From Heterodontus francisci (taxonomy: Eukaryota): DNA of 64,000 bases. The translations under genes and the position numbers were made by a program. The stretch is from contig NC_090404.1 in NCBI RefSeq assembly GCF_036365525.1, positions 11,064,550-11,128,549 on the forward strand, written 5' to 3'. The notes below the pieces were generated by a model. The model had not been told where the DNA came from. It did not search any database and saw nothing but the letters and a program-made list of their open reading frames with translations. Numbering within the stretch: position 1 is the stretch's first letter; each line of letters begins with the position of its first letter. This document shows positions 1 to 50,655 of this stretch, piece by piece.

Positions 1-2587
1 ATCTACATGTAGATTGGTCGAACCAGCTCAGTCATGGTAGCCTTGAGGAGGAATTCGTTGAGTGTATCCGTGATAGTTTTCTTGAACAGTTTGTAATGGA
101 ACCGACGAGGAAGTAAGCTATCCTAGATCTAGTCCTGTGTAATGAGACAGGAATAATTAATGACCTCATAGTTAGGGATCCTCTTGGAAGGAGTGATCAC
201 AGTATGGTTGAATTTAGAATACAGATGGAGAGCGTGAAGATAAAATCCAATACCAGGGTCCTGTGCTTGAACAAGGGGGACTACAATAGAATGAGGGAGG
301 ACTTGGCTAAAGTGGGCTGGAAACAAAGATTTTATGGTGGGACAGTTGAGCAGTGGAGGACTTTCAAAGCAATTTTTCAAAGTGCTCAGCAAAAGTATAT
401 TCCAGTGAAAAGGAAGGACTGGAAGAAAAGGGGTAATCTGCCATGGGTGTCTAAGGAAATAAGGGAGGCTATCAAATTGAAAGAGAAGGCATACAAAGTG
501 GCCAAAAGCAGCATGAAACTAGAAGATTGGGAAAACTTTAAAGGTCAACAGAAAGCCACAAAAAGAGCAAGAAAGAAAAGTAAGATAGAACATGAGAAAA
601 AACTAGCACAGAATATAAAGACAGATAGCAAAAGTTTCTATAAATATATAAAACGAAAAAGAGTGGCTAAAGTAAACGTTGGTCCTTTAGAGGATGAGAA
701 GGGGAATTTAGTTATGGGATATGATGAAATGGCAGAGGCATTGAACAGGTATTTTGTATCGGTCTTCTCAGTGGAGGACATGAATAACATGCCAGTAATT
801 GACAAAGAGACGAACATAGGTGAGGAACTGGAAACAATCATTATTACGGAAGAGGTAGTGTTGGGCAAGCTAATGGAGCTAAGGATTGATAAGTCTCCTG
901 GCCCTGATGGAATGCATCCCAGGGTACTAAAAGAGATGGCGGGAGAAATAGCAGGTGCACTGACGGTAATTTTCCAAAATTCGCTTGACTCTGGGGTAGT
1001 CCCAGCTGATTGGAAAACAGCAGATGTGACGCCACTGTTTAAAAAGGGAGGTAGACAAAAGATGGGCAATTATAGAGCGGTTAGCTTAACCTCTGTAGTG
1101 GGGAAGATGTTTGAGTCTATTATCAAGGAAGAAATAGCAGGGCATCTCGATAGAAATTGTCCCGTTGGGCAGACGCAGCATAGGTTCATGAAGGGCAGGT
1201 CATGCTTGACAAATCTTTTGGAATTCTATGAAGACATTACGAGCAAGGTGGACAATGGGGACCCAGTGGATGTGGTGTACCTAGATTTCCAAAAGGCCTT
1301 CGACAAGGTGCCGCACAAGAGGCTGCTGCATAAGATAAGGATGCATGGCGTTAGGGGTAAAGTATTAGCTTGGATAGAGGATTGGTTATTTTTGTTTAGA
1401 GATACAGCACTGAAACAGGCCCTTCGGCCCACCGAGTCTGTGCCGACCATCAACCACCCGTTTACACTAATCCTACACTAATCCCATATTCCCATGTTAT
1501 CTAACAGGAAGCAGAGAATGGGGATAAATGAGTGATAATCTGGCTGGCAATCAGTCACTAGTGGTGTGCCTCAGGGATCGGTGTTGGGACCGCAATTATT
1601 TACAATTTATATAGATGATTTGGAGTTGGGGACCACGTGTAGGGTGTCAAAGTTTGCAGATGACACTAAGATGAGTGGCAGAGCAAAGTGTGCAGATGAC
1701 TGTGAAACTTTGCAGAGGAACATAGATACATTGAGTGAGTGGGCAAAGGTCTGGCAGATGGAATACAATGTTAATAAATGTGAAGTCATTCATTTCGGTA
1801 GGAGTAACAGTAAAAAGGATTATTACTTGAATGGTAAAAAGTTGCAGCATGCTGCTATGCAGAGGGACCTGGGTGTCCTTGTGCATGAATCTCAGAAGGT
1901 TGGTCTGCAGGTACAGCAAGTAATTAGGAAGGCAAATGGAATTTTGTCCTTCATTGCTAAAGGGATTGAGTTTAAAAGCAGGGAGGTTATGTTGCAGCTG
2001 TATAAGGTACTGGTGAGGCCGCACCTGGAGTACTGTGTGCAGTTTTGGTCTCCTTACTTGAGAAAGGATATACTGGCACTGGAGAGGGTGCAGAGGAGGT
2101 TCACTAGGTTGATTCCGGAGTTGAGGGGGTTGGCTTATGAGGAGAGACTGAGTAGATTGGGATTATATTCATTGGAGTTCAGAAGAATGAGGGGGGATCT
2201 TATAGAAACATATAAAATCATGAAGGGAATAGATAAGATACAAGTAGAGAGGATGTTTCCACTGGCAGGTGAAGCTAGGACAAGAGGGCATAGCCTCAAG
2301 ATTAGAGGGAGCAGATTTAGGACTGAATTAAGAAGGAACTTCTTCACCCAGAGGGTTGTTAATCTATGGAATTCCTTTCCCAGTGAAGTAGTTGACGCTT
2401 CTTCAGTAAACGTCTTTAAAGCTAAGGTAGATATCTTTTTGAACAATAAAGGAATTAAGGGATACGGTGAGAGCGCGGGTAAGTGGATCTGAGTCCACGA
2501 AAAGATCAGCCATGATCTTATTGAATGGCGGAGCAGGCTCGAGGGGCCGGACGGCCTACTCCTGCTCCTAGTTCTTATGATCTTATG
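1..2587 (+). mobile_element. CR1 LINE ORF2 (end of endonuclease, RT, 3' UTR), disrupted by stops and a SINE fragment
   Basis: ORFs 204-1481 (KSPGPDG, YLDFQKAFDKVPH) and 1566-2492 (PQGSVLGP, FADDTK, RPHLEYCVQFW); TCTTATGA repeat tail at about 2573-2588. Confidence 0.95.
1388..1494 (-). mobile_element. 3' fragment of HE1-like SINE inserted in the CR1 RT
   Basis: TTTAGAGATACAGCACTGAAACAGGCCCTTCGGCCCACC matches the ends of the longer SINE copies at 53.0 and 63.2 kb. Confidence 0.8.
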
Positions 2588-3026
2588 ACACACCAACGTA
2601 CTCACACTGGGGAGAGGCCGTTCATCTGTTCCATCTGTGGAAAGGGATTCACTCTCATCCAACCTACAGAAACACCAGATAATTCACTGGGAGAGGCCGT
2701 TCACCTTCTCCATCTGTGGGAAGGGATTCACTCAATCATCCAGTCTGGTGGAACACCAGCGAATTCACAGTGGGGAGAGACCATTCACCTGCTTTGTGTG
2801 TCTGAAGGGATTCACCCATTCATCACACCTGCTGACACACCGACAAATTCACACTGGGGAGAGGCTGTTCTGATGCTCTCTGTGTGAGAAGAGATTTACT
2901 CTCAAATCCAGCCGAGTAGCACACCAGCGACTACACACTGGGGAGAGGCCATTCATCTGCTCCATGTGTAGGAAGGTATTCACTTGTTCATCCAACCTGG
3001 TGACTCACCAGCAAGTTCACAAGTGA
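2588..3026 (+). pseudogene. C2H2 zinc-finger exon remnant, truncated by the CR1 insertion and frameshifted
   Basis: HTGERPF-CxxC-GKGF repeats in shifting frames; stop 3024-3026; AATAAA near 3166. Confidence 0.9.
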
Positions 3027-4930: not shown

Positions 4931-5540
4931 GGGGTTTAGAAGGTGAGGATTTACAAATGGGGAAACTCAAACCAAGGGATCTATTTGTCTGCTCTACCTG
5001 TGGGAAAAGATTTCAAACAGCAGTGTGACTGGAAAAGCACAGAGACACACACATCTGAGTGAGAGTGTTGCAGTGAACTAACCCTGGAGGGGGATTCACC
5101 CAGTTACACAAGCTGAAAAAACACCATTCGTATCGAGGAGAGATTGTACACGTGTGTGTGGCTGAGGCTTCAACTGACCATCCAACTTCGAGAGACACAA
5201 GGACACCTCGGAGAAACCGTGGGAATGGGGGGGACTGTGGTAAGAGATTCAATTCCGCATCCAAGTCGGAAACTCATCCGCAGTCACGCTGGGGAGAGGC
5301 TGTTCACCTGCTCCATGTGTGGGAAGGGATTCACTCAGTCACAGCAGCTGTTGAAATATTGGCAAATTCACACTGGGGAGAGACCTGCTCTGTATGTAGG
5401 AAAGAATTCACTGTCACAACTGCTGTTGAGACATTGGCAAATTCACACTGGGAGGAGGCAGTTCACTTGCTCCATGTGTGGGAAAGGATTCACCTAGTCA
5501 CAACACATGTTGAAACACCAGAGAGTTCACATGTGATGAT
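4931..5540 (+). pseudogene. C2H2 zinc-finger pseudogene exon
   Basis: Acceptor TTTTACAG at about 4930; degenerate fingers ([17 protein letters not shown]) with frameshifts/stops; upstream and 3' UTR similar to the minus-strand ZNF at 10.8-11.8 kb. Confidence 0.88.
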
Positions 5541-6310
5541 AGAGGTTGGATTCTGCTGTTAATCACATCCTTTGTTTCAGATGTTAATAACCCCTTATAA
5601 CTGGGCTGGTGTTTAATACTCTGGATCTCTGTCAAATAAATCAGTTTTGGTGGAAACACAGCATGTTGTATTCTTGGAGAAATTAAGAGGAGACTAATTG
5701 ATGGCCTGTTAGTGACTGATCCATTTATCTGCCTTTTCTCCTTTCTGACTCTACATTATTTTAGTTACTTGGTTACTCTCATGGACAAGTTCCAGCTCCT
5801 CATACCTTCCAGAGTGCCTCTCCCAGGCTTGGTATCCTGGGAAGGTATTGGTAACACGCCCAGGATCAGTGAACACAAATCCCAGTCTGTTAATCACTTT
5901 CAGCTAGGACTTAGCCTGTGTCCCACAACATCTCCCTCACCTTAAATGTGTCAATAGAGCATCACACCTGCAAACCTGGTTTAAATGTGAATCCACTCAG
6001 GAAATATATTTAACAGGAGCCTGCAGGCTGAGGAGACTCAGTTAAGCTGCCAGTGTGCTGCTGTACTGCTCTGTATTTTGCCTGCAATGGAGAATAACTG
6101 AACCTTTGTCCCAGTGTAACCTTTGCTGTTCTGAAATGTGGGTGTAGATTAATGAGCCTCACATCCTTGCTCATGTCTTCGGCAATTGCGTAGAAAGGGG
6201 ATGTGTAAAGAGATGGTCTTTGTGAACAGATGTGAAACAAGGAAACGGGATCTCTGTGTGATAGTGACACAGCCTTGTGCTCACAGTCAAAGCAACGCAC
6301 AGATATCCTT

Positions 6311-6460
6311 TTTTTTTTCTTTGACCCCGCTTTTTTTTTGATGGGGACAGTGTTGAGGGAACTTTACTCTGTATCTAACCCTGTTTTTTTTTTTTTCTTT
6401 TTTAAGGTGGCCTTTATACCCCAGGCCCCTTTTATATTTTTCATGTCGAGGGGGCCTTTA
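6311..6460 (-). mobile_element. Tx1 3' end plus 69-bp target-repeat fragment and multiple poly(A) runs
   Basis: Matches the Tx1 3' UTR at 46272-46330; flanked by GCACAGATATCCTT (6297-6310) and GCACAGATGTCCTT (6461-6474). Confidence 0.85.
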
Positions 6461-6879
6461 GCACAGATGTCCTTGTGGTTATGATTTGAGCAGGGCCAGA
6501 ACACAAATGTAGCCGCAGTTTGTTGATCAGACCTGGGGAGAAGAGAGCTCTGAATTCACTGTATTATCTGTTCTCCGGATTGGGTAACTATACTCTGTCT
6601 GTATCATTGCAGTGCTGTTAATAAAGTCAGTAAAAGACAATGTTGTTGTGGAGCTTGATTATCTGGTGTCTGAAATCAAAAGATTCAATATTTAGAGTCA
6701 ACAAGATGAACAAGGAAACACATCACAGCCCAATACTCCAGCTCGATATTCACAGAGGAAAATCTGTTATCCAACACCTCGAGTGGACAGAATAGAGAAA
6801 GATCCCAAACGTAAGAAACCATCAAATCATTTGTAAATATCTTTCAAATGCTGACAGGTTCCAACTGTCAGTTTCCATT

Positions 6880-10227: not shown

Positions 10228-10435
10228 CAGCCTGGGGAATAAAGGCTCCCTCGACAAAATAAAAAGGGTCTGGGGTAAAAAGGCCACCTTAAAAAAAAAG
10301 GGGTTAGATACAGAGTAAAGGTCCCTCTACACTGTCCCATCAAACACTCCCAGGGCAGGTACAGCAAGGGTTAGATACAAAGAACATAAAAAATAGGAGC
10401 TGGACTTGGCCATCTGGGGTAAAGCTCCCTCTAAA
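10228..10435 (+). mobile_element. Tx1 3' end followed by 69-bp target repeat
   Basis: CCTGGGGAATAAAGGC...AAGGCCACCTT-polyA-GGGGTTAGATACAGAGTAAAG. Confidence 0.8.
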
Positions 10436-10767
10436 CTTCATTGGCTGTAAAGTGTTTTGTGATGTCCTGATGTCATGAAAGGAGCTACAAAAATACAAGT
10501 CTTTCTTTAACAGAGGAGAAAAGGCCCAAAAATGGAACAGTTAACAGCAGCATTTCAATTAGTCTCCTCTTTTCATGGAACAAATATTCCACACACTGTG
10601 TGTTGGAAATAAAGCTGATTTATTTGATATTTATCCAGAATTTAAACTCCAGCCCAGTTATAGAGGTTATTAATATCAGTAGAAACAAACACCAACTGTC
10701 AGAATAAACATGGTTCAGTCTGGATGTGATTAACAGCAGCAATAACAGCAGAATTCAATCCCTGCAG

Positions 10768-11783
10768 TCACTTGTGAACTCGCTGGTATCTCAGCAGGGT
10801 GGATGAATTGTTGAATCCCTTCCCACACATGGAGCAGGTGAATGGCCTTTCTCCACAGTGAGTGTGTTGGTGTCTCAGTAGATAATATCAGCTTTTAAAG
10901 CTCCCCTCAGTCAGAACATTTAAAAGTTCTTTGATCAGTGTGAACTAGTTGGTGTTTCAGCAGGTTGGATGGATAAATGAATCCCTTCCCACAGTCAGAG
11001 CAGGTGAATGGCCTCTCCCCAGTGTGAGTGCGTTGGTGTTTCAGCAGATTATTTTTACTTTTAAAGCTTTTCTCACAGTCACAACATTTAAAAGGTCTCT
11101 GATCAGTGTGAACTTGCTGGTGTGTTAGCAGGGTGGATAACTGAGTGAATCCATTCCCACATACAGTGCAGGTGAACGGCCTCTCCCCAGTGTGAACTCG
11201 CTGGTATGTCAGTTGATCATTTTTTCTTTTAAATCTCTTCTTACAGTCAGAACATTTAAAAGGTCTCTGATTGGAGTGAATAAGTTCATGTCTCGTAAGG
11301 TAGGAAGATCGAGTGAATCCTATCCCACACACACAGCATGTGAATGGCCTCTCCCCAGTGTGACTACGGCAATGTATTTCCAGCTGGGATGGGTAACTGA
11401 ATCTCTTCCCACAGTCTCCACATTTGCAGGGTTTCTCCATGGTGGCAGTGTCCTTTTGTCTCTCCAGCTTGGAAGCTCACTTAAAGCCTTGTCTACACAC
11501 AGATCAGGTGTACAGTTTCTCCTTGTCGTGAATGGTGCGATGTTTTTTCAGGCTGTGTAACTGGTTAAAGCTCTTTCCACAGTCAGTGCACTGGAACACT
11601 CTCACTCGGGTGTGTGTGTGTCTCGGTGCTTTTCCAGTCACATTGATGTTTGAAATCTTTTCCCACAGAAAGAACAGACAAACATTTGATATTCAGGTCC
11701 TGATGAATTGTGTGACTCTGTCAGAGTTTGATGTCCTGCTTGGTTTGTGTTTCCTGTCTTTAAATCCTCCCCTTCTAATCCCC
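10768..11783 (-). pseudogene. C2H2 zinc-finger exon; 177-aa open segment (10907-11440) with 6 fingers (one with His->Tyr), decayed fingers on both sides
   Basis: ORF track; acceptor TTTTAACAG at about 11784; upstream stop and downstream frameshift at about 10910; could still encode a short ZNF. Confidence 0.85.
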
Positions 11784-33568: not shown

Positions 33569-34109
33569 ATGAAGCCCGTTGAGCTGGTCCTGATGTCCTT
33601 TGTACTAGGTAGATTGGGACATGTGTTCGCTCTGCTCATGTGAATTACCATGATGTTCCCTGTTGCATGTCAATATTGTGTTTCTTCATCTGGTGTGCAT
33701 ATTCCAGGCGTCCCTTGTATTATGTAAATTATAATAGATATTCCATGTGCTGGGTTGACTGCTGCCAATTAAGAAGCGGGTTAACCGATAACAATTATTT
33801 TACAGGTAAAATCCAAGGAACTTCAGTAACGCAACATCAACACGAGTTGAAGGCATCTGAAGGAGATCATCTTCAATTGAATTGTAATTACAACACCAGC
33901 TCTGATAATCCGGACCGTTACTGGTACCGTCTGTACCCGAACCAGGCACCCCAATTTATATTGTACCGTGATAACACCAGGCGAAGTGATGCCGATTTTG
34001 CGACAGGAAAATTCGCTGCCCGTCATTTCAATCAATATCAAGTTTTTCCTTTGTCGATTTCTGCAGCAGAGACTAAAGACAGTGCCGTCTATTTCTGCGG
34101 ACTGAGAGT
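33569..34109 (+). CDS. TCR alpha/delta-type V segment 1 (leader 33569-33608, V exon 33806-34109)
   Basis: Leader MKPVELVLMSFVLG with phase-1 donor GTAGAT; acceptor TTTACAG; V with LNC...YWYRL...APQFIL...DSAVYFC; RSS follows. Confidence 0.92.
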
Positions 34110-34147
34110 CACGGTGCTTGAAAACTGCTCGACTCCATACAAAAACC
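34110..34147 (+). other. Recombination signal sequence, 22-bp spacer (23-class)
   Basis: CACGGTG + 22 nt + ACAAAAACC. Confidence 0.93.
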
Positions 34148-35206
34148 TCGTCAAATCATAGAACCACCCGAGAACTAAGTCAAAGCATCTACCATCGGGC
34201 GCATCATGAAAAAAAATGTCACTGTTGGAATGATGGAAAAAAACATTTTTCACGTTTCACTACAATGGTTCTAACGATCACAGACTTTAGTTACGTGGAG
34301 TGAATGGAGAAGCTGGGATTGTTTCCCTCAGAGCTGAGAAGGTTTAAGGAGATTTAACAGACGTGACTACATTTATGAAAGGTTTTATAAAGTAGATGAG
34401 GAGAATTGTTTTTCACTGGAAGGAGAGTCGATAACGAGAGGCTACAGATTAACGATAATTCGCAAAAGAAATCGGGGGGAAGGGGGAGGCGGAGGGGATT
34501 TGGGAATTTTTTCGCAGTGAGTTGATCTGAGCAAGAAGGCACTGCCTGAAAGGGTGGTGGAAGCAGATTCAAGAACAACTTTCAAAAGAAATTGGATAAA
34601 TATTTAATAATGAAAGAGTCCAAGTCTATCGGAATAGAACAACAAAGTGGGAATTGTTGGATTGCTCTTGCACACTGCGAGCACAGACACGATTGGTTGA
34701 ATGATTTCCTGCTGTGTTGTATCATTCCGTAATTCTATAAATCACACCCAATCCTGACATTGGCATAAACTGTCGTTCCTTTATTTTCTCCAGGCCAAAA
34801 ATCCTAGACCTACTTACCTGTAGGAGCACCTTCACCACACGTTCAATTACCATATCAATCTCCCGAATAGCTATTGAACAAGAGGGGTGGGAAGGGAGGG
34901 GCGAATTATCAAACATGAACATAGCCCAGGGCGGTTTCCTTTCCTTCTCTTGCACTCTCCTCCTTTAATCTACTGAGTGACATTCTGAGTGATGTGGTAA
35001 GATGGTGTAGGAGGAAGTAGAGAGACTCCACAGACCAATCAGCACTCCTGTTCAAATACTGCGACTCGGCCAGCTCTTCATTGGAAAATAATTGCAAGAG
35101 ATACTTCCTCCTCTTCTGAGAAACAACAGTTTCTCCCTTCACTCCGCAAGGCTGATTGCAACAGTAAATATATCTGCTATTCCAAGGGGTTGTTGCTAAA
35201 CATACA

Positions 35207-37720: not shown

Positions 37721-40385
37721 GAATGGACCCGAGCGTCCTTTGCTATATGTCCTCGTTCGTATATTCAATATCACAACTCGCGGGCCTGTCTCTTCACATT
37801 ATTTTGAGTTTCTCACTCAAGACTCGCTCAGATGACGTCAATTGCTTGACTGACCTCGAGCCCGGCCATTGGACACTGCGTCTTTCAAGGAAGCAAATGG
37901 GAGGCTTTTTGCACCAATCAGCGAACAGTACTTGATTACAGTCTCTTAAAAAAAACTCTCCAGTTCCGAGTGTACAACACAGAACCAGATTCCAGGCAGC
38001 TCGCCTTTCCCTTTAAGATTATTTGACTCATTAATCTGCTCAACCTCTCTCCTCTATCTCCTCTTTGCCCACATCGGACAAAGCAGGGCTTTTGATGACC
38101 TAATTTTTTTCAGCGAGTAAAGCGAAAACCGCAGGATGTCCGTTATACAAACGTATGAGCTATGTGAGTTTAACGAGTTCTTCTTGCGGCTTTTAACCCT
38201 GAGCAACGGTTTCCACCAATTGCCTATGAAGGCAAGGGGAATATAGCAGCACTAACCTTGCTATTATTAGTTTTCAGTAACCCTTTTGTGCTCGGTGTGT
38301 GTGAGAGTGGGAGAGGAGGTGTGATAACAGGAAAAAGAGAAAGGAGAGCAATCCTGGAAATATTACCCTAAATCAGAAAGCGATTAAAATGTAACGCAAG
38401 ACAGTTAGCATCTGAAAGTGACAGACAGGAAAAATTCCGGAGTGATCTCAGCGGCCAAGAGTTCATAGAATTGGTTAATTAACCTGTAGCTCTATGCGAC
38501 AGTTTTTAGTTTTTTTACACCATTGATGGACCCTGGGCAATACAGTCAGGTTCCGGACGATTTAGATAAAAATATTGCCATTTTATTTTATCGATTTTGG
38601 CCCTTCAACCTCAAAGTTGATTTCTGTTTATCGGGGAGACTATGCTTTTTCAGTGTATTCACATATTTGCTGACACATTTAGCGCGTTTGCTTTCTCCTT
38701 AATGCAGTATTAGTAACTATTATCACGTCATATTGGTTCTAAAATTCCCCCAATTGTATTGGATAGAATGCGCGCTTAGTAGACATTTTCACATCATCGA
38801 CACAGCGGAATTTGTACTAAATGCACCAACAGCTGGGGTAGCGATCTGAATGGACACTCCATATCGGAGCTGGAATCGATTACTTTAAAGAGAGAGAGAG
38901 AGGTGGACAAGATACTATGACTGATACTTTGCACAAAACTATTACAAATAGGTTAGAAATACTCCTGACCAAAATAAGGAGACAAATCAGGAATCTAACG
39001 GAATGCGGCAGGTCCCAGATATCACGTTCCTTTCGAAAACGTTTCATTTTTATTTTCCAAGCTACCTGATGCCACTTTATAAACATGACTGAAGTCTAAA
39101 CATTTCAATGGAAATGAAGTGACGCAGGACAACATACAAAGTGATAAAGTCCCCGCCCAAACACGAACAGAGATCTCTGTCGTTCAAGATCACAATCAAA
39201 CTCAGTTTGTAAATGCCACGGCGTAGGAAAGAGCAAGAGATTTCGACAGAAATATAACCGTAGGAAACTCAAAACTTTTCGGCTGTACCTAAAACGATTA
39301 TTTCCGAGAAAGAGAAAACAAAATTTTTTTTTTGCCGACTTTATGTTTCTGAATGTCCGTCTACACAGTTCTGGAAAAGGAACAGAGGAAGTCGGATGAA
39401 CTGCAAAAACAATTTGTTTTCGAACAATAATAATGGGAATATTTAATTTTCCAATTCTATCTGTCTATCTCACTTTCTCTGTCCCTTCTCTATTTCCATC
39501 TTTCTCTCCAAGTAAAACTCCATCCACATTGCCCAATGAAACACTCCCAGACCAGGTAAAATATGGTTCGATACAGAGTAAAGCTCCCTCTACACGGTCC
39601 CCATCAAACATTCCCAGGACAGGTACAACACGGGGATTGGCTGGTCAATTTGGAACACTTCCTGCCAGCAATCAGGGGGAGCAGCTGCACCTGTGCTGCA
39701 GCAACTGCAGAGTGGAGAGTGGAGAGTGGAGACTGCAGCAACTGGAGAGAGAGACTGGAGAAAGGTGAATACTGAGTGGAGACTGCACCAACTGGAGAGA
39801 GAGAGAGACTGGAGAAAGGTGAATACAGAGTGGAGGGAAACCATCAAGGAAGGCTGCAATTTTTCTGGAGAGGTGGGTGTCAGGGCACCTGAAAGACTAT
39901 TAAGTTTAAACTGTTTGGGGGAGGGAGAAGAGGCCTGAAGACTCAGGGGTGGGGCAGCCAATCCAGTAGGGGCCCCTGTGTTTGTATTGGTGTTTGCACA
40001 CAGGGAGCTCCCTCCCCACCCCAACTGCCTGCTCGGGACAGCTGGAGTTGCCCGGGTGAAGACTGTCTTGTTAAAATCAGAAGAGGAGAGTACCGGGCGG
40101 CTCCAGCCGTCCCGGGCGAAGAAGCCTCCCCCAACTGGAAGACAACAAACAGTTTTGGACTAATTGTTATAAAGGTGCTCCAACTGGCAGTTGGATCAAA
40201 CATCCTTTTCAGCCTTTCTCTCCCTTCCTCCACTCAGTCGCCTCAGTCACCTATCCTCCCCATTTCCTTTACCATCCTACCCCATCCTCCTCTACTCCCA
40301 CTCCACCTTGTTTAAAGTTTGCTTTTTTTAAAAAATTGTGTAAATTTGTTTTGTTTCTTGGGGGTGGACGTAGCTCTTAGACCCC

Positions 40386-42425
40386 ATGGCAAGCCCCTCT
40401 TCGCCGGTGGCGGGGCCTTCCCGTTCATATGCTGCTGCGGCTGCTGCAGCTGCACCTGTTGCCCCGTCACCTTTTGCTTTATTAACAACGAAGCATGGGG
40501 TCAAGAGCTACGTCCACCCGAACATGACTATAGAGGCATGCGTGAAAGCAATGGCCGAGGTTGTCGGCCCTTCGGCCATTGTTGCAGCCTCTAAAATGTA
40601 CGGGAAGGCAGTGTTTTTCCTGAAGACCGAGCGGGCGGTGTCCCTGGCTCTGAGCAAGGGGCTCACCGTGGGCGGGACCTTTCTGCCAGTGGACCCCCTG
40701 GAGGCCACTGCGCAAAGGCTCATTTTATCCAATGTCCCACCCTTCATCCCTGGTGAGCTCCTCCTTCCCCACCTGCACCATCTGGGGGAGGTAAAGACGG
40801 GGCTCACCCCAGTCCCGCTCGGTCTTCGGGAGAACAGCCTCCGACACGTCTACTCCTTCCGCCGCCAGTTATTCATGCAGCTGGCGCGGGAGGAGGTGAC
40901 AGAGGGCCACTTCAATGTCGAATTCCAGGGGACGGCCTACCGCGTCTTCTGGACCTTGGACGGGGTGCGGTGCCATGTCTGTAAGGGGGTGGGGCATGTT
41001 CGTAAGAACTGCCCCAACCTCCCGGCTGCCAACTCCAACTCAGCGGCCCAGGGTGGCGACGCTGCACCTCCTCCCACCCCCACTACACCACCACCAGATA
41101 CCATTCAGTCGGTACCGGAGGCTGTGGTTTTCACGGCCTCCGGCAGGGAGGGGGGTGACCGTCCAAGTGGAAGGAAGGCGCGGAGGAGAAATAAACATCG
41201 AGAGGCGCGTCCCCTGGATATCATGACACTACCCGAGCCTGAGCTCAGCCCAAGGCCCGATCTCGGGAAGTCAACTTGCCCCAGGGCTGGGCTCAGGCCC
41301 AGGGTGAATAAAAAAAAGGAGAGTGTGGAGGTGGAGGCCTCTGATGATATGGAGGTCTCTGAGCCTCCGCACACAACTGGGAAAAAGAGGAGAAGGCACC
41401 CCTCCACAGAGGTAACAAGGGGCCCTGAGGCGCAGGGCCCATCTGTTGGAGGGGAGCTGTCTCCTGTTTCGGGTCCCCAGGTTTCCCCTACCGCCACCAC
41501 CAAGGCTGCAAAGTCCGGGCAGGTGCTCCCAATTCCTCAGGATGGAGGGAAGGGGATGGCCCCGGTACATGAGGCCCCTACAGAAGGAGTAAGTGGGGCC
41601 CTGCTTGTGGTGGGGGAGCCTGGGGAAGCCGCCCATTCTGCCACTGCTACTGGGTCGGGTGTCCTGAATGAAGGGGAGGGCGAGGCCCCAGAGGGTCGGG
41701 CCTCCCAGCCGGAGTCCACTACCAACCAGGAGACACCCGACCCAGTTATAACTGAGAATGCTGCCCCACCTGCTGGGCCTGTGGGTGCTGGCGGAGCGGG
41801 AGATAGCCTCCTCCCTCCGCCTCCAATCTCGGCTCCGGCTGGTTTCCCGGAGTCGGGAACTTCTGTCTCCCCTGGACCACTCATTGCCCTGGGGACGGAG
41901 GTGGAGGGGGGTCCTGAGCCGCTGGTGCCTACAGGCTCCAGTTTCACAATAGAACCCAGAGAGGACTCCTCCGCCATCGATCCTGGGGGTGGGATCGTGA
42001 CGGAGGCGGGACCAGCTGGCGCGGCCGGGACGTCCGCCCCACAGTGTGTGGTGGATGTGTTGGCCGCTGGCGGTGACGACCCGGAGGAGGATGGGGATTC
42101 GGTGCGGGGCACGGAGGATGATCTTGATTCCATCGCCAGTGAGGTGGTGGAGTCCCTCGTGCCTCCCACCGAATCTCCTCTCATCCCCACGGCGGAACTC
42201 CGGGATTTCCTCGCGGCTTGCAGGGGTTGCCGCAATAAAGTTCAGCTGGCCCTCGACCGTTGGTCGAATCTGGCGCTGATCATCCAGTCCGTCCGTGCCG
42301 CCCTTAAGATAGCGGGTAAGCGCGCGGACGTGAAACTGGTTGAGAGGCGCCGTTTTAATGTGTTCCTCAATGGGTTGCTGGGGGAGTGGAGGGCCAGGTG
42401 CACTTCCACTCCCTCCTCACAGTGA
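40386..42425 (+). CDS. Tx1 ORF1p (RRM-like region, CCHC zinc knuckle, long Pro/Gly/Glu-rich region)
   Basis: SIVAASKMYGKAVFFL, ILSNVPPFI, CHVCKGVGHVRKNC. Confidence 0.9.
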   Translation: MASPSSPVAGPSRSYAAAAAAAAPVAPSPFALLTTKHGVKSYVHPNMTIEACVKAMAEVVGPSAIVAASKMYGKAVFFLKTERAVSLALSKGLTVGGTFLPVDPLEATAQRLILSNVPPFIPGELLLPHLHHLGEVKTGLTPVPLGLRENSLRHVYSFRRQLFMQLAREEVTEGHFNVEFQGTAYRVFWTLDGVRCHVCKGVGHVRKNCPNLPAANSNSAAQGGDAAPPPTPTTPPPDTIQSVPEAVVFTASGREGGDRPSGRKARRRNKHREARPLDIMTLPEPELSPRPDLGKSTCPRAGLRPRVNKKKESVEVEASDDMEVSEPPHTTGKKRRRHPSTEVTRGPEAQGPSVGGELSPVSGPQVSPTATTKAAKSGQVLPIPQDGGKGMAPVHEAPTEGVSGALLVVGEPGEAAHSATATGSGVLNEGEGEAPEGRASQPESTTNQETPDPVITENAAPPAGPVGAGGAGDSLLPPPPISAPAGFPESGTSVSPGPLIALGTEVEGGPEPLVPTGSSFTIEPREDSSAIDPGGGIVTEAGPAGAAGTSAPQCVVDVLAAGGDDPEEDGDSVRGTEDDLDSIASEVVESLVPPTESPLIPTAELRDFLAACRGCRNKVQLALDRWSNLALIIQSVRAALKIAGKRADVKLVERRRFNVFLNGLLGEWRARCTSTPSSQ

Positions 42426-42457
42426 GCTGTTGGTGACGGGTTTTAAGTACCTTTGAC

Positions 42458-45400
42458 ATGAAGATAACCATAGCCAGCCTCAACATCAACGGCAGCAGAG
42501 GGGCTCACCGCAGATTTCACAATCTCTCAGTCCTTAGGGAAGGGAGATACGCGGTGAGCTTTCTGCAGGAAACCCACACCGTTCCGGGAGACGAAGCCAC
42601 CTGGCTCCTGGAGTGGCAGGGTGGGGTCTACATGAGTCACCTCACCCCTATTTCTAGTGGGGTGGCTATCTTGTTGGCCCCGACTTTTCAGCCGGAGATC
42701 TTGGGGGTCAAGGAGCTAGTGCCGGGCCGCTTGCTCCACCTCGCCGTTCGCCTGGGTAGCGTGCCGCTCCACTTTGTGAACGTGTACGCGCCCAGGCCCG
42801 GCGCTTTGCAAGCGCGCTTCTTTGAAGAAGTGTCCGCTCTCTTGAGCTCCATCGATAGCGGCGAGTGCATCATCCTCGGGGGGGATTTTAACTGCACCCT
42901 CGAGGTGGGGGATCGCTCCGGTCCCCAGCGCGGCCAAGCGTCGGTGGAGAAGTTGAGGGGACTGATCAGCTCCCTTAACTTGGTGGACGTCTGGCGGAAT
43001 CTCCATCCCGACTCCAGCGCCTTCACGTGGAGGTCTGGAGGAGGGGGGTCGCGAATCGACCGCCTCTACATTTCGCAGGCGTACGTCTCCCGCGTCTCGG
43101 CGGCCTCCATACGGCTGGTGCCGTGCTCGGACCACCGCCTGGTGTGGGCGGAGTTCACTCCGCTCCGCACGCGGGCGGGGTCCGCGTACTGGCACTTTAA
43201 CAACCGGCTGCTGGAGGACGTGCGATTTCGGGACTCGTTCTGTCGATTCTGGGCCGACTGGAGAAGGAAGCAGGGGGGCTTCCCCTCCTTGAGGCTATGG
43301 TGGGATGTGGGCAAGACTCACATCCGCGTCTTCTGTCAGGAGTACGCGAAGGGGTCGACCAAAAGGCGGGAAGCCGAGATCGGGCGCCTTGAGAGGGAGG
43401 TGCTCGACTTGGAATCCCGCCTCGGTCATGCCGTCGCGGACCCGGCCCTGTGGCAGGCGTACAAAGAGAAGAAGGGCGCGCTGAGGAACCTGCAGCTCAT
43501 AGGGTCCCGAGGCGCGTACGTGAGGTCGCGGATCCAGATCCTGCAAGATTTGGACCGCGCCTCACCCTTCTTCTACTCGCTGGAAAAATGGCGGGGGGTC
43601 CGTAAGCAGCTCGTTGAGCTGCTGGCCGACGACGGATCCTCCATCACGGATCCGGAGGGAATGGGCCTCCTGGTCCGGACGTATTACAGTGCGTTGTTCT
43701 CTCCGGATCCGTCCAGTGAGGATGCGCGCAGATATTTGTGGGAGGACCTGCCGCAGGTCAGCCCGGAGGGCGCCGAAGGATTGGAGGCTCCGCTCACGTT
43801 GGCGGAGCTGACTGGCGCCCTCCACCATCTCTCGAGGGGCAAATCCCCAGGGCTGGATGGGTTGACCGTGGAGTTCCTCAGGGCGTTCTGGGATGTCCTG
43901 GGGGACGATTACGCGGGGGTCCTGGGGGAAAGCCTGGCGACCGGGGAGATGCCCCTCTCGTGGCGCAGGGCGGTCATCGTCCTGCTGCCGAAGAGGGGCG
44001 ATCTCCGCCTGCTTAAAAACTGGCGTCCGGTCTCCCTCCTCAGCACGGATTATAAGATCTTTGCCCGGGCTATGTCTACCCGCCTGGGCTCCGTGCTGGC
44101 CCACATGATCCACCCCGACCAGTCCTACACAGTCCCGGGCCGGTCCATCCAGGACAACATCCACCTGGTCCGGGACCTGATCCATCTTTCCCAGAGGACT
44201 GGTCAGTCGGTCGCCTTTCTCTCCCTCGATCAGGAGAAGGCGTTCGACAGGGTGGATCACGATTACCTTTTCGGGACTCTGCGCGCTTTCGGACTCGGAC
44301 CGCATTTCGTGGCCCGGGTCCGACTTTTATACGCCGCCGCAGAGTGTCTAATCAAGGTTAACGGGTCCTTGACGGCGCCCCTTCGATTTGGGAGAGGAGT
44401 GCGTCAGGGGTGCCCCATGTCCGGCCAATTGTATACCATCTGCGTGGAGCCCTTCCTGTGCCTGCTTCGCAGGAGGTTGACGGGATTGGCTCTGCGCGAG
44501 CCGGCCATGCGGGTCGTCCTCTCGGCTTACGCCGACGACGTGCTCCTCGCAATCACAGATCCCGTTGACTTGCGGAGGATGCGCGACTGCCAGCAGACCT
44601 TTTCTGCCGCGTCCTCCGCGAGGATCAATTGGGAGAAATGTTCTGGACTCCTGGTTGGTCAGTGGCGGGTGGACTCCCTGCCGGAGGAGATGACACCTTT
44701 TGCGTGGAGCACCACGCACCTCCTCTATCTGGGAGTCCACCTTAGCCCCGCTGAGGAAGCCTGGCTGGCAAACTGGCAGGAGTTGGAGGCGAAAGTCACC
44801 GCTCGGCTGGGGCGCTGGACAGGACTGCTCAGAGTGCTTTCCTACAGGGGCCGAGCGTTGGTCATAAACCAACTGGTGGCCTCCATGCTGTGGTACCGGT
44901 TGGTCACTTTGGCCCCGCCCCCTGTATTTGCCACCAAGATCCAGAAGAAACTCGTCGATTTCTTCTGGGGCAAGAGGAAACACTGGGTCTCTGCCGTGGT
45001 CCTGAGTCTCCCGATCGAGGAGGGCGGTCAGTCGCTGGTGTGCGTCCGCACCCAGGCTGCGACTCTCCGCCTTCGGACCCTGCAGAGATACCTGTACGTC
45101 GAGCGTCCTCCCAGATGGTGTGCGCTGGCGACGTATTTTTTCCGCCAGTGTCACTGCCTTCAAGACGACACGCAGCTCCCGGTGGAGTCCGTTAGCCGCG
45201 CCTCTCTGAGGGAGTTGCCTGTCTTTTACCGGGATCTTTTCCGAGTCTGGAACATGGTCGCCTCCAGTCAGGGCGCTCCCCCGCCGGCGGAGGAGAGCGC
45301 CTCGGCTGTCCGGGCGGCCGACTCCGGGGACGGTCCGGCGGGCGGAGGAGTAGCCGAAACCCCCGGGGCGCCCCTCACTGCGGGTGGCGAGGGGGCTCGG

Positions 45401-46195
45401 GAGTGCGGAGCGATCCCGGCCGAGTTGACCCCCGCTCGGCCGGAACTGCTCATCGGACCCAGGCCCCGAAACCCTCCTCGGGAGCCGGTCCCGCACAACC
45501 CGAGCCGCCTCTCGGAAATGCCCTCCGTGCCATTCCAATCGGCGCGGAGGGGTTTCCTGTACGGGCTGTTCCTGCACACTCTCCACTTCCTCGCCCTCGT
45601 CAGCCGGCCGGACACGCCCTGGCGGTCCGCGTTGCCATCTGGCGGCGAGGGGAAACCCCGATGGAGGTCTCTCTACGCGGGAGTCTTCCCCCTTTACATC
45701 GGGGACCTGGGGTGGAGGGTGCTGCACAGAGCAGTCCCGTGCAATAGGCTTTTAAGTAGGTTCACGGACTCCCAGGCCACCTGTACTTTCTGCGGCCTGG
45801 ACGAGTCCGTGTTCCACGTTTATACGGAGTGTGCGAGGTTGCAGCCCCTATTTGAGTATCTGAAGGGGCTGCTCCTCAAATTCTGGCTGCACTTCAGTCC
45901 CACGCTCCTGATCTTTGGGCACCCGGTGCGGAGGGGCTCGGGCCGGGAGGAGGATCTCCTCGTCGGTCTGCTCCTGGGCCTGGCCAAGGTGGCAATTCAC
46001 AGGTCCAGGTTGCGGGCCGTCGGGGGGTCCGTCCTCCCCGATTGCCTGCCCCTCTTCCGCGGTTACGTTCGCGCCCGGGTGTCCCTGGAAAAGGAGCATG
46101 CGGTATCCGCCGGTACGCTTGAGGCCTTCCGCGACCGGTGGGCACCGCAGGGACTGGAGTGCATCGTCGACGCCGAGAATGGCATTTTAATTTGA
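42458..46195 (+). CDS. Tx1 ORF2p (APE endonuclease, RT, zf-RVT), 1245 aa, intact
   Basis: SLNING, LQETH, GGDFN, SRIDR, SDH; KSPGLDG, DQEKAFD, QGCPMS, YADD; CTFC...ESVFHVYTEC. Confidence 0.96.
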   Translation: MKITIASLNINGSRGAHRRFHNLSVLREGRYAVSFLQETHTVPGDEATWLLEWQGGVYMSHLTPISSGVAILLAPTFQPEILGVKELVPGRLLHLAVRLGSVPLHFVNVYAPRPGALQARFFEEVSALLSSIDSGECIILGGDFNCTLEVGDRSGPQRGQASVEKLRGLISSLNLVDVWRNLHPDSSAFTWRSGGGGSRIDRLYISQAYVSRVSAASIRLVPCSDHRLVWAEFTPLRTRAGSAYWHFNNRLLEDVRFRDSFCRFWADWRRKQGGFPSLRLWWDVGKTHIRVFCQEYAKGSTKRREAEIGRLEREVLDLESRLGHAVADPALWQAYKEKKGALRNLQLIGSRGAYVRSRIQILQDLDRASPFFYSLEKWRGVRKQLVELLADDGSSITDPEGMGLLVRTYYSALFSPDPSSEDARRYLWEDLPQVSPEGAEGLEAPLTLAELTGALHHLSRGKSPGLDGLTVEFLRAFWDVLGDDYAGVLGESLATGEMPLSWRRAVIVLLPKRGDLRLLKNWRPVSLLSTDYKIFARAMSTRLGSVLAHMIHPDQSYTVPGRSIQDNIHLVRDLIHLSQRTGQSVAFLSLDQEKAFDRVDHDYLFGTLRAFGLGPHFVARVRLLYAAAECLIKVNGSLTAPLRFGRGVRQGCPMSGQLYTICVEPFLCLLRRRLTGLALREPAMRVVLSAYADDVLLAITDPVDLRRMRDCQQTFSAASSARINWEKCSGLLVGQWRVDSLPEEMTPFAWSTTHLLYLGVHLSPAEEAWLANWQELEAKVTARLGRWTGLLRVLSYRGRALVINQLVASMLWYRLVTLAPPPVFATKIQKKLVDFFWGKRKHWVSAVVLSLPIEEGGQSLVCVRTQAATLRLRTLQRYLYVERPPRWCALATYFFRQCHCLQDDTQLPVESVSRASLRELPVFYRDLFRVWNMVASSQGAPPPAEESASAVRAADSGDGPAGGGVAETPGAPLTAGGEGARECGAIPAELTPARPELLIGPRPRNPPREPVPHNPSRLSEMPSVPFQSARRGFLYGLFLHTLHFLALVSRPDTPWRSALPSGGEGKPRWRSLYAGVFPLYIGDLGWRVLHRAVPCNRLLSRFTDSQATCTFCGLDESVFHVYTECARLQPLFEYLKGLLLKFWLHFSPTLLIFGHPVRRGSGREEDLLVGLLLGLAKVAIHRSRLRAVGGSVLPDCLPLFRGYVRARVSLEKEHAVSAGTLEAFRDRWAPQGLECIVDAENGILI

Positions 46196-46350
46196 GTTTT
46201 TTTGTTTATTTATCTGTTTTAATAAAGTTATTTTAAAACTGTAAATATGTACATAAAGGGGGCCTGAGGGATAAAGGCCCCCTCGATGTGAAAAATATAA
46301 AAGGGGCCTGGGGTATAAAGGTCACCTTGTAAAAAAAAGAAAAAAAAAAA

Positions 46351-46968
46351 CGGGGTTAAATACAGAGTAAAGCTCCCTCTACAAAAAAAAAAAAAACGGG
46401 GTTAGATACAAGCACCGTGAAGAGCGTCTGCAGGCCAAGAAGGTAGAGATCATTAAGACTCTGTCCAAGGAAGAAGAATCTACAAAATAAGTATAGACTT
46501 GCAAGTTAATTAAAAATTACTCATCGGAAAAAAAAACGGGGTTAGATACAGAGTAAAGTTCCCTCTGCACTCTCTCCATCAAACACTCCCATGACATGTA
46601 CAGCACGGGGTTAGATACAGAGTAAAGCTCCCTCTACATTGTCCCCAACAAACACTCCCATGACAGGTACAGCACGGGGTTAGATACAGAGTAAAGCTCC
46701 CTCTGCACTCTCCCCATCAAACACTCCCATGACAGGTACAGCACGGGGTTAGATACAGAGTAAATAATAAAGAAAAAAAACGGGGTTAGACACAGAGTAA
46801 AGCTCCCTCTGCACTCTCCCCATCAAACACTCCCATGACAGGTACAGCACGGGGTTAGATACAGTGTAAATAATAAAGAAAAAAAACGGGGTTAGATACA
46901 GAGTAAAGCTCCCTCTACACTGTCCCCATCAAACACTCCCAGGACAGGTACAATACGGGGTTAAATAC
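46351..46968. repeat. 69-bp satellite (Tx1 target), continuing at 39505-39635 and 49456-49930
   Basis: Unit CGGGGTTAGATACAGAGTAAAGCTCCCTCT(A/G)CACT...AAACACTCCCA(T/G)GACAGGTACAGCA; starts at 46537, 46606, 46675. Confidence 0.93.
46411..46536 (+). pseudogene. RPL19: Processed pseudogene fragment, 3' end of ribosomal protein L19 mRNA
   Basis: HREERLQAKKVEIIKTLSKEEESTK* (stop 46488-46490), ATTAAA 46509-46514, poly(A), TSD CGGGGTTAGATACA. Confidence 0.9.
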
Positions 46969-49455
46969 TCCCCAGGGCTGGATGGGTTGACTGTGGAGTT
47001 CCTCAGGGCGTTCTGGGACGTCCTGGGGGACGATTACGCGCGGTTCCTGGGGGAAAGCCTAGCGACCGGGGAGATGCCCCTCTCGTGGCGCAGGGCGGTC
47101 ATCGGCCTGCTGCCGAAGAGGGGCAATCTCTGCCTGCTTAAAAACTGGCGTCCGGTCTCCCTGCTCAGCATGGATTATAAGATCTTTGCCCGGGCTATGT
47201 CTACCCGCCTGGGCTCCGTGCTGGCCCACATGATCCACCCCGACCAGTCCTACACGGTCCCAGGCCGGTCCATCCAGGATAACATCCACCTGGTCTGGGA
47301 CCTGATCCATCTTTCCCAGAGGACTGGTCAGTCAGTCGCCTTTCTCTCCCTCGATCAGGAGAAGGCATTCGACAGGGTGGATCACGAATACCTTTTTGGG
47401 ACTCTGCGTGCTTTCGGACTCGGGCCGCATTTCGTGTCTGGTCAATGTGTCTGGTCCTTGACAGCGCCCCTTCGCATTGGGAGAGGAGTGCATCAGGGAT
47501 GCCCCATGTCTGGCCAATTGTATACCATCTGCGTGGAGCCCTTCCTGTGCCTGCTTCACAGGAGGTTGACGGGATTGGCTCTGCGCGAGCTGGTCATGCA
47601 GGTCGTCCTCTCCTCTTACGCCGACGACCTGCTCCTCATGGTCACAGATCCCGTTGACTTGCAGAGGATGCATAACTGCCAGCAGACCTTTTCTGCTGCG
47701 TCCTCTACGAGGATCAATTGAGAGAAATGTTCCGGACTCCTGGTTGGTCAGTGGCGGGTGGACTCCCTGCCGGAGGAGATGACACCTTCTCTATCTGGGA
47801 GTCCACCTTAGCCCCGCTGCAAAAGCCTGGCCGGCAAACTGACAGGAGTTGGAGAAGAAAATCACTGCTCGGCTGGGGCGCTGGACAGGACTGCTCCGAG
47901 TGCTTTCCTATAGGGGCCGAGCGCTGGTCATAAATCAGCTGGTGGCCTCCATGTTGTGGTACCGGTTGGTCACTTGGGCCCCGCCCCCTGCATTTGCCAA
48001 CAAGATCCAGAAGAAACTCGTCGATTTCTTCTGGGGCAAGAGAAAACACTGGGTCTCTGCCACGGTCTTGAGTCTCTCAATTGAGGAGGGCGGCCAGTCA
48101 CTGGTGTGCGTCCGCACCCAGGCTACGACTCTCCGCCTTCGGACCCTGCAGAGATACCTGTACGTCGAGCGTCCTCCTAGATGGTGTGCACTGGCGATGT
48201 ATTTTTTCCGCCAGTGTTACTGCCTTCAAGACGACGTGCAGCTCCCGGTGGAGTCCGTTAGCCGCGCTTCTCTGAGGGAGTTGCCTGTCTTTTACCAGGA
48301 TCTATTCCGAGTCTGGAACATGGTCGCCTCCAGTCAGGGCGCTCCCCCGCCGGCGGAGGTGAGTGCCTCGGCTGTCTGGGCGGCCGAGTCCGGGGACGGT
48401 CCGGCGGGCGGAGGAGTAGTCGAAACCCCCGGGACGCCCCTCACTGCGGGTGGCGAGGGGGCACGGGAGTGCGGAGCGCTCCTGGCCGAGCTGACTCCCG
48501 CTCGGCCGGAACTGCTCATCAGACCCAGGCCCCAAAACCCTCCTCAGGAGCCGGCCCCGCACTACCCGAGCCGCCTCTCGGAAATGCCCTCCATGCCATT
48601 CCAATTGGCGCGGAGGGGTTTCCTGTACGGGCTGCTCCTGCACACTCTCCACTTCCTCGCCCTCGTTAGCCAGCCAGACACGCCCTGGCAGTCTGCATTG
48701 CCATCTGGCGGCAAGGGGAAACCCCGATGGAGGTCTCTCTACGCGGGAGTCTTCCCCCTTTACATCGGGGACCTGGGGTGGAGGGTGTTGCACAGGGCAG
48801 TCCCGTGCAATAGACTTTTAAGTAGGTACACGGACTCCCAGGCCGCCTGTATTTTCTGCGGCCTGGACGAGTCCGTGTTCCACATATATATGGAGTGTGC
48901 GATGTTGCAGCCCCTCTCTGAGTATTTGAAGGGGCTGCTCCTCAAGTTCTGGCTGCACTTCAGTCCCAGGCTCATGATCTTTGGCACTCGTGAGCGGAGG
49001 GGCGTGGGCCGGGAGGAGGATCTCCTCGTCAGTCTGCTCCTGGGCCTGGCCAAGGTGGCAATTCACAGGTCCAGGTTGTGGGCCGTCGGGGGGTCCGTCC
49101 TCCACGATTGCCTGCCCCTCTTCCGCAGTTATATTCGCGCCCGGGTATCCCTGGAAAAGGAGCATGCGGTGTCCGCCGGTACGCTTGAGGCCTTCTGCAA
49201 CCGGTGGGCACCGCTGGGACTGGATTGCATCCTCGACGCCGAGAATGGCATTTTAATTTGAGTTTTTTTGTTTATTTATCTGGTTTTACTAAAGTTATTT
49301 TAAAACTGTAAATATGTATATAAGGGGAGCCTGAGGAATAAAGGCCCCCTCGATGTGAAAAATATAAAAGGGGCCTGGGGTATAAAGGCCACCTTAGAGA
49401 AAAAAAAACGGGTTAAGGAAAAAAGAGAAAAGAAACCCCCCCCCCTCCAAAAAAA
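46969..49455 (+). mobile_element. 5'-truncated, frameshifted Tx1 copy
   Basis: ORFs 46987-47721 and 47849-49261 closely match ORF2; TSD ACGGGGTTAAATAC at 46955-46968 and 49456-49469. Confidence 0.95.
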
Positions 49456-50655
49456 ACGGGGTTAAATACAGAGTAAAGTTCCCTCTGCACTCTCCCCAAC
49501 ATATACACCCATGATAGGTACAGCACGGGGTTAGATACAGAGTAAAGCTCCTTCTACACTCTCCCCATCAAAAAAGAGGGAAAAAAGGGGCTTAGATACG
49601 GAATAAAACTCACTCTACACTGTGCAATCAAAGGCTCCGAGAGCTGATACATCTCGGTTAGATATAGAACAAAGCTTCCTTTACACTTTCCCGTCAATCA
49701 TTTCCAGGGGAAGCGCACATTGTGCTGGATACAAATTGAAACCTCCACCTACACTGTCCAATGAAACATCCCCAGATGAAATTCAGCATGGCTTAGATAC
49801 AGAGTAAAGCTCCATCTGCACTGTTCCATCAAACACTCCCAGAGCAGGTACAGTATGGGTCAGATACAGAATAAAGTTCGCTTGACATTGTGTCATCAAA
49901 AGGTCCCAGAGTAGCTGTAGTACGGATTATATACATCAGGACGTGTTACAGCGAACACTTACATGCCAACTGCTGCAGCTTTTAAATAAAACTCAGAGCT
50001 CCCTTTCGTCTGCCCCACAAAATACCCCCATGTCAGGTGCATCTCAGCTGACGCACGGAATATATCTGTTATCCCGTTCCACTAAATACTCCAATCTCAG
50101 GTATAATACGATTACCTGCAAACTGAAGGCACCCTTTCCCATTCAGCAATCCCAGTTAGATACAACTTGTTATAATATTCCTCTATTGCAGCCCAATAAT
50201 GCTTTTGAACCAAATACAACATCTTGTCATTATATTGTCAACTGATAAAAGTTTGAAGCGTCAGATTTCCAGTGTTGACCCGCCTATCATTCAGTTTGTG
50301 GTTCAGTGGATAAAATAATGTTTGGACATGGAAACCGAATTGAGTAAACCTGATAACTATGTCGGCTAACACCGGGGCAAATTCACCCTTAAAACTGCCT
50401 CATTGTCATATAAACCCAACGAGTTCACTGATATCCTTAACCTATATCAGGGTTATAGTTAGAATTATTCAAAGGGAAGAGTGAATTCAGAGGTGTTTTA
50501 GATTTCCAATTCCCACTTGAAGAGTGTTGCCAGTGAAAGTTTATTTTCAAATCCTCGGATACCACGGTCAGCTGATGTCGAATTGCTTTGTGTGTGAAAT
50601 CATTTACAAGTGCCTCATACGATATTAGCTATCTGCTGATGTGCTTATCTATACA

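Follow-up and report, generated by a model that had tools for sequence, protein, structure and literature searches.

A Tx1L-lineage retrotransposon of Heterodontus francisci prefers one base of a dispersed 69-bp minisatellite and probably carries this target to new loci

Tx1L of Xenopus laevis inserts at a site within the repeat Tx1D, as described in the accessible part of PMC1950540. Further families of the Tx1 clade (Keno, Kibi, Koshi, Tx1-Mar and 'Sat') show a preference for multicopy targets and tandem insertion, with weaker specificity in some of them, and satellites are found among the Tx1 targets (Kojima 2015, available text of PMC4494074, Fig. 3 legend). According to the same text, in which no shark is named, SINEU is mobilized in trans to the same site. 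APE-type site-specific elements are also known from the R1 clade, namely R1Bm, R7Ag and SART1Bm. 3' transduction is described for R7Ag, R1Bm and L1, and annealing between RNA and target aids priming (PMC7265360, accessible part).

The window analysed here, a stretch of 64,000 nt, contains a full-length element of this kind and several associated features (Table 1); genome-wide counts refer to the 6.0 Gb searched. A sequence-only reading of the window had proposed an intact ORF2 of 1245 aa, which was confirmed and is joined by an ORF1 of 679 aa. The Pfam domains PF03372 (N-terminal APE) and PF00078 (reverse transcriptase) are found in ORF2, and the catalytic motifs are intact. Over its whole length, copy 1 ORF2 is 50% identical to Xenopus Tx1L. 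Among named proteins, those of a horn shark (93% over 28% of the query) and a stingray (74% over 35%) come nearest. In a reverse transcriptase tree (21 rows, midpoint root, named Keno, Kibi and Koshi rows absent), the stingray protein is the sister, within a seven-row clade that includes sturgeon, Xenopus Tx1L and turtles (support 100/99). The endonuclease structure predicted from an alignment of 54 rows (pLDDT 95.7) best matches the L1 endonuclease (TM 0.88). Its glycine-rich hairpin loop comprises 7 residues, where Tx1L has 11, and does not vary among the 34 intact copies; in L1, this loop probes DNA (PMC1950540, accessible part). The features expected of the Tx1 clade are all present, that is, a separate ORF1 with a CCHC knuckle, a poly(A) tail, 5' truncation and target duplication. 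The element is thus a Tx1 clade non-LTR retrotransposon of the Tx1L lineage. An Rfam search of positions 39300-50200 returned three weak matches only, all far below the cut-off, which were rejected.

Table 1 Features of the window, in order of position
Feature	Position	Strand	Remarks
Off-target transduction block: element 3' end, tail, 44 nt of repeat, second tail	6297..6472	-	12-bp duplication of ordinary DNA (6461-6472, 6297-6308)
Worn element 3' fragment, A10, one repeat unit	10230..10382	+	5' junction outside repeat
69-bp minisatellite upstream of copy 1, one worn and one good unit	39536..39630	+	target
Full-length Tx1L-lineage LINE, copy 1	39631..46330	+	opening bases resemble target just past the cut
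ORF1, 679 aa, CCHC knuckle at 196-209	40386..42425	+	zf-CCHC E 0.007, below cut-off
ORF2, 1245 aa: APE endonuclease, reverse transcriptase, C-terminal cysteine motif	42458..46195	+	
A-tail, 32 nt of repeat with rare variant, second A-tail	46331..46396	+	likely 3'-transduced piece of copy 1
Host RPL19 3' end: last 26 codons, 3' UTR, A-tail	46410..46536	+	RPL19 sequence 46410-46527; 14-bp duplications 46396-46409 / 46536-46549
Minisatellite array with 106-bp tandem duplication of unit, partial unit and A-tail	46537..46968	+	
Copy 2, 5'-truncated, broken, 91% identical to copy 1	46969..49455	+	element ends at 49395; compound tail
Minisatellite units decaying to 72-84% identity, one partial unit and A-tail near 49570	49456..49930	+	old array

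The diversity of the family was assessed in 58 loci, the best matches to either element end, a sample biased to young full-length copies. ORF2 is intact in 34 of these loci and both ORFs in 30. Copies of ORF2 are 0.13-1.4% apart (median 0.7%). Variants found in at least three copies comprise 26 silent and 20 replacement changes, and singletons 82 silent and 110 replacement changes. Near-identical ORF2 sequences carry at least three 5' UTR types, which share the same kind of start, and two ORF1 types that are ~86% alike across the first 230 residues. This pattern suggests that the family was recently active, and the Tx1 affiliation and youth proposed from the window hold genome-wide. Every 5' UTR type starts with ATTGGCT or GTTGGCT (e.g. 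window 39636-39642), which also mimics the target and presumably reads as an inverted CCAAT box.

Insertion occurs at a fixed phase of the repeat. A10 followed by the target motif forms 1,044 exact junctions genome-wide, compared to 0 for the same tail at a control phase, and 120 of 123 A8+ runs entering a unit share one phase (loci chosen by element, G-run length normalized). At the 5' end, 27 of the 30 best full-length matches abut a repeat unit, two abut another copy's tail and one lies inside a copy. The 3' ends of the 30 best copies are followed by the repeat (24), the head of another copy (2), short G-run pieces (3) or off-target DNA (1), with two rows corrected by eye. Contigs of organism B and record X8 also span the same repeat/5' junction, at low depth. 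In the window, 5' junctions within the repeat had been proposed and are found at 39631-39635 and 46968, not at the fragment ending at 10299. The proposed 14-bp target duplication of copy 2 was likewise recovered, as ACGGGGTTAAATAC at 46955-46968 and 49456-49469; between the element end and the second duplicate lie A9, a short CGGGTTAA piece and further A-rich sequence up to 49456. No outer duplication was found around the fragment at 10230..10382.

The unit at the 5' junction is regarded as target because variants of the local array are retained there, by eye up to 7, 13, 43 and 55 bases before the junction. The candidate assignment of the repeat to the element's 5' end was rejected beyond ~5 bases, since these variants persist to the junction. 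A T at the second base is present in 54 of 77 element junctions and in 11 of 281 plain units, so those junction bases come from RNA, and the first five or so bases of the element RNA probably resemble the target. From the first 100 A10+target matches listed, 98 exact junctions were classified by eye, some of which represent a single event multiplied in tandem: 39 follow an element, 43 seem to consist of a tail alone, 4 follow short element 5' fragments, 10 follow foreign sequence and 2 are ambiguous. At L086, L135, L153 and L188, 10-70-nt fragments of the element 5' end are joined directly to A-tails at the target; these may derive from very short tailed transcripts.

The repeat, a unit of which adjoins all four element pieces of the window, had been described as a satellite. 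The 69-bp unit is real; it forms a dispersed minisatellite and not a long satellite block, with a median merged array of 142 bp and a longest array of 1.9 kb (277 arrays, overlapping loci counted repeatedly). Shared flanks of these arrays were not found among the fetched loci, where the 300-bp flanks fall into 81 clusters among 85 on the left and 102 among 106 on the right. The exact empty target 27-mer occurs 2,457 times genome-wide. These empty targets, the unshared flanks and the local variants kept up to the junction speak against the view that the repeat belongs inside a DNA transposon, as an internal array, or to the element itself, as for Tx1L in Tx1D, with everything else hitchhiking. 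That the closest named relative is Tx1L and that the repeat travels with the element would fit such an arrangement, which we nevertheless consider highly improbable.

Matches to the repeat concentrate near contig ends, on both strands. More than 25 Mb from a contig end lie 6 of the first 100 A10+target matches listed and 5 of the first 100 empty targets listed; DNA at this distance makes up 79% of the four largest contigs (C1-C4). The unit opens with GGGTTAG (e.g. window 46539-46545), like the vertebrate telomere repeat. Further element copies or repeat units are absent from the 20 kb beside the window. Elsewhere in the window, C2H2 zinc-finger arrays are located at 2586-3021, 5306-5517 and 10773-11440, and an immunoglobulin V-set exon, likely an antigen-receptor V segment, at 33667-34161. 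The DNA next to the repeat, at 10368-10560, is found again in L078, which suggests duplicated segments of a zinc-finger cluster.

Since best-match samples favour young full-length copies, a target-independent sample was drawn with an exact 28-mer of the element 3' end (1,341 matches genome-wide). From the first 100 matches listed, 97 copies were analysed, all on C1-C4, with classes corrected by eye. At most 60 of them are on target, at least 35 lie off target in ordinary DNA, and 2 rows are ambiguous. Both ends were verified on target in 26 copies, and in 23 the 5' end lies outside the fetched DNA. Repeat or element head follows the tail in 62 of 66 subterminal copies (2 of these 62 are transduced). 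Truncation at the 5' end or rearrangement affects every one of the 31 mid-chromosome copies, 22 of which lie within an outer duplication of ordinary DNA. The expectation of the sequence-only reading that 5' junctions mostly fall in the repeat thus holds for full-length copies, as given above, and fails for mid-chromosome copies (0 of 31).

The off-target duplications are between 10 and 16 bp long; across 25 sites, the median is 13-14 bp if the shared A is included. This matches the two 14-bp duplications of the window. An A precedes 23 of the 25 sites, and the off-target consensus is weak. Full-length copies were seen on target only; nearly all of these occupy one site, which is not the case for the 97-copy sample. 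Of the proposed sequence specificity, the genome-wide preference for the target therefore stands, and the term 'sequence-specific' is too strong: the element is target-preferring but leaky. The suggested use as an insertion tool would have a defined short target, which at least a third of the sampled copies missed.

The motif after a tail is no proof of on-target insertion, because the RNA often carries it. In the window, the A-tail and motif reported for all four 3' ends are present at 46351, 49457, 10300 and 6384 (minus); the copy at 6383 (minus) landed outside the repeat. Among the 35 off-target copies of the sample, 16 carry a repeat piece after the tail (14 mid-chromosome, 2 subterminal), and 15 of these 16 blocks finish with a second tail and a duplication. 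L252, L276, L081 and L146 were not counted as transduced after inspection by eye. Such blocks with outer duplication are found at window 6297-6472, L073, L074, L192, C17 and C286. For C17, comparison with a paralogous site that is empty confirms the duplication of 13 bp. L074 and L273 hold whole units and supply three of the five listed mid-chromosome intact targets. It is likely that the element plants new landing sites for itself, because off-target copies often bring a repeat piece along.

The block at C286 spans 13.9 kb, opens with tail and repeat only and contains two full-length copies, which suggests seeding followed by later colonization; one long transcript is a possible alternative source at both C286 and C17. 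The case for re-use of seeds rests on these two loci, because no seed among the 31 sampled mid-chromosome copies holds a full-length copy. At L073 (C2:44.4 Mb), a ~100-nt tRNA-like piece with an intron has been joined to the 5' side of the truncated element within the duplication, probably through a template switch; ARAGORN calls it at relaxed threshold only, with uncertain anticodon.

Several insertions of poly(A) alone had been proposed for the window. A-runs do occur at the same phase at 46383, 46773, 46879 and ~49570, and were largely misread. The run at 46383 is likely the second tail of copy 1 after a transduced 32-nt piece and not a separate insertion: the nearest copy, L095, shares the rare variant of copy 1 directly after the tail, a variant present in 2 of 37, so 46351-46396 is likely a transduced piece of copy 1. 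The runs listed at 46765 and 46871 represent one event duplicated in the 106-bp tandem. Genome-wide, 59 cases of a partial unit plus tail share 3 of 27 variants with the following unit, compared to 57 of 218 between adjacent plain units, a non-significant difference (p 0.10); a true duplication should share nearly all. On this low sharing, most long 'duplications' were probably copied from another locus, and many 'tail-only' events would largely be transduced pieces and not local duplications. Short partial units, 8-13 nt long, are consistent with true duplications.

These short units, the phase lock and the worn old units of the window are also what a strictly sequence-specific element in a pre-existing satellite would leave, with A-only events as abortive starts with variable duplications. 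The off-target share of the sample, the 16 copies with repeat inside outer duplications and the mismatch of long partial units with the local target run against such strictness, which we regard as unlikely.

Host transcripts are found at the same base. An RPL19 retrocopy at 46410-46527, flanked by a 14-bp duplication of its own, had escaped the sequence-only reading. It comprises last-exon sequence only; the RPL19 parent is located on C33, and a longer spliced retrocopy with two exons joined lies inside the repeat on C19. Window and C19 copies agree across 149 bases, including a 12-bp deletion and the tail length, and the identity extends through the tail and the next 22 bases. The shared deletion and tail length mark the window copy as second-hand, via RNA or conversion. 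This complete identity would also fit ectopic gene conversion between arrays, started by a nick and copying tails, partial units and retrocopies as DNA. Off-target blocks, however, show fresh A-tails, and their 10-16-bp duplications lie in DNA that has no homology. Gene conversion may account for some on-target events and is hardly credible as the general process.

At three loci the target holds an RPL30 retrocopy in which exons of the C5 gene are joined, and two of these retrocopies are nearly full-length. Intron loss, poly(A), target duplication and a parent elsewhere, the marks of processed pseudogenes, are found for the RPL19 and RPL30 copies. For each of two other transcript ends at the target there is a single parent (99%), which possesses a poly(A) signal and neither tail nor repeat. 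One of these ends, located in the target on C6, was copied from the 3' UTR of an intronless MaoC-like dehydratase ORF at L308:1701-2312 minus (C19:54.5 Mb). Among retrocopies found independently of the target, 2 of 9 are on target (RPL30 2/5, RPL32 0/3, RPL21 0/1), and one off-target RPL32 retrocopy sits at a look-alike site. At L207 (C1:268.2 Mb), an RPL21 retrocopy outside the repeat keeps its frame open over most of the gene. Judged by their position, the host retrocopies on target were probably made by the family's ORF2p.

Targeting could instead depend mainly on RNA-DNA homology and chromatin, with a loosely specific endonuclease, RNAs with repeat-like ends and subterminal regions. The short glycine-rich hairpin loop, the weak off-target consensus, the restriction of full-length copies to the target and the identity of the window and C19 RPL19 copies beyond the tail are compatible with this, and RNA-target annealing is used by R1Bm and SART1 (PMC7265360, accessible part). 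Host transcripts without homology to the repeat nevertheless hit the exact base (RPL30, RPL19 on C19 and two others), and homology as the main determinant appears improbable.

The preferred reading, to which we assign a probability of roughly 0.8, is that a young Tx1L-lineage LINE prefers one base of the 69-bp minisatellite, that its ORF2 nicks there and primes on any poly(A), and that read-through RNA carries the repeat. Directly observed are the fixed phase, the duplications of ~13-14 bp, the host retrocopies at the same base and the repeat pieces within duplications of ordinary DNA. The enzymatic steps are modelled on established target-primed reverse transcription. The endonuclease would nick the bottom strand at CAGC/A-CGGGG, so that the 3' T meets the A-tail; the A before 23 of 25 off-target sites also fits this model. 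The top strand would be cut ~13 bp downstream. A relaxed choice of RNA would allow host mRNAs to be written in trans, and the first bases of the element, by mimicking the target, would help to join full-length copies. Transcripts would read through into the repeat, and copies made elsewhere would bring it along. Read-through RNA could thereby leave partial units with a new tail, lengthening arrays on target and seeding new ones off target.

A further-reaching reading holds that read-through is the main route by which the minisatellite spreads, that full-length copies later colonize the seeds, and that ORF2p accepts every poly(A) RNA, even full-length host mRNA, for writing at one base. It is put forward tentatively, at somewhat less than even odds. 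If true, parasite and target would form a self-amplifying pair, and a vertebrate would possess a natural writer of mRNA into DNA with a preferred site. The usual view of site-specific retrotransposons is that they are guests in a repeat which the host maintains; the shark element measurably moves its own target, and this gives a testable explanation of how the dispersed minisatellite arose and how targets are supplied. With dozens of intact copies that are almost identical, a defined short target and full-length host retrocopies at that base, the family lends itself to testing how an ORF2p of the APE type, here with an unusually short hairpin loop, can prefer certain DNA and yet be loose in its choice of RNA.

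No account of the family, the 69-bp unit or self-seeding was found in the literature searched, including the accessible parts of PMC4640811, PMC3747384 and PMC13320880, a scope that excludes Repbase/Dfam and most subscription papers. 'Tx1' is absent from the main text of the shark genome papers PMC10620051, PMC13100897 and 10.1101/2025.06.08.657570. Within this literature, the target is apparently undescribed.

Tx1L of Xenopus laevis (UniRef YTX2_X...) resembles the shark element in ORF2 (50% identity, the same 100/99 clade, APE and reverse transcriptase) and in its site within a repeat. Its target lies inside Tx1D, whereas that of the shark element is a free minisatellite without shared flanks (300-bp flanks, fetched loci). 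The bottom strand after the presumed nick is not AGTT, as given for Tx1L, the loop has 7 residues instead of 11, and many copies are off target. Human L1 primes on poly(A), generates processed pseudogenes, carries 3' transductions and has changing 5' UTRs. It resembles the shark element in the modelled endonuclease fold (TM 0.88) and differs in having a short T/A consensus only and no preferred repeat. R1Bm, R7Ag and SART1Bm belong to another clade and target rDNA or telomere repeats, and seeding of new targets is not described for them in the accessible part of PMC7265360. Compared with the families of Kojima 2015, as described in the available text of PMC4494074, the shark element has spliced host mRNA among its cargo and also transduces its target. 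Satellite targeting by Tx1 elements, trans-mobilization and 3' transduction are each already known; what appears to be new is the measured spread of an element's own target together with the capture of host mRNA at one base.
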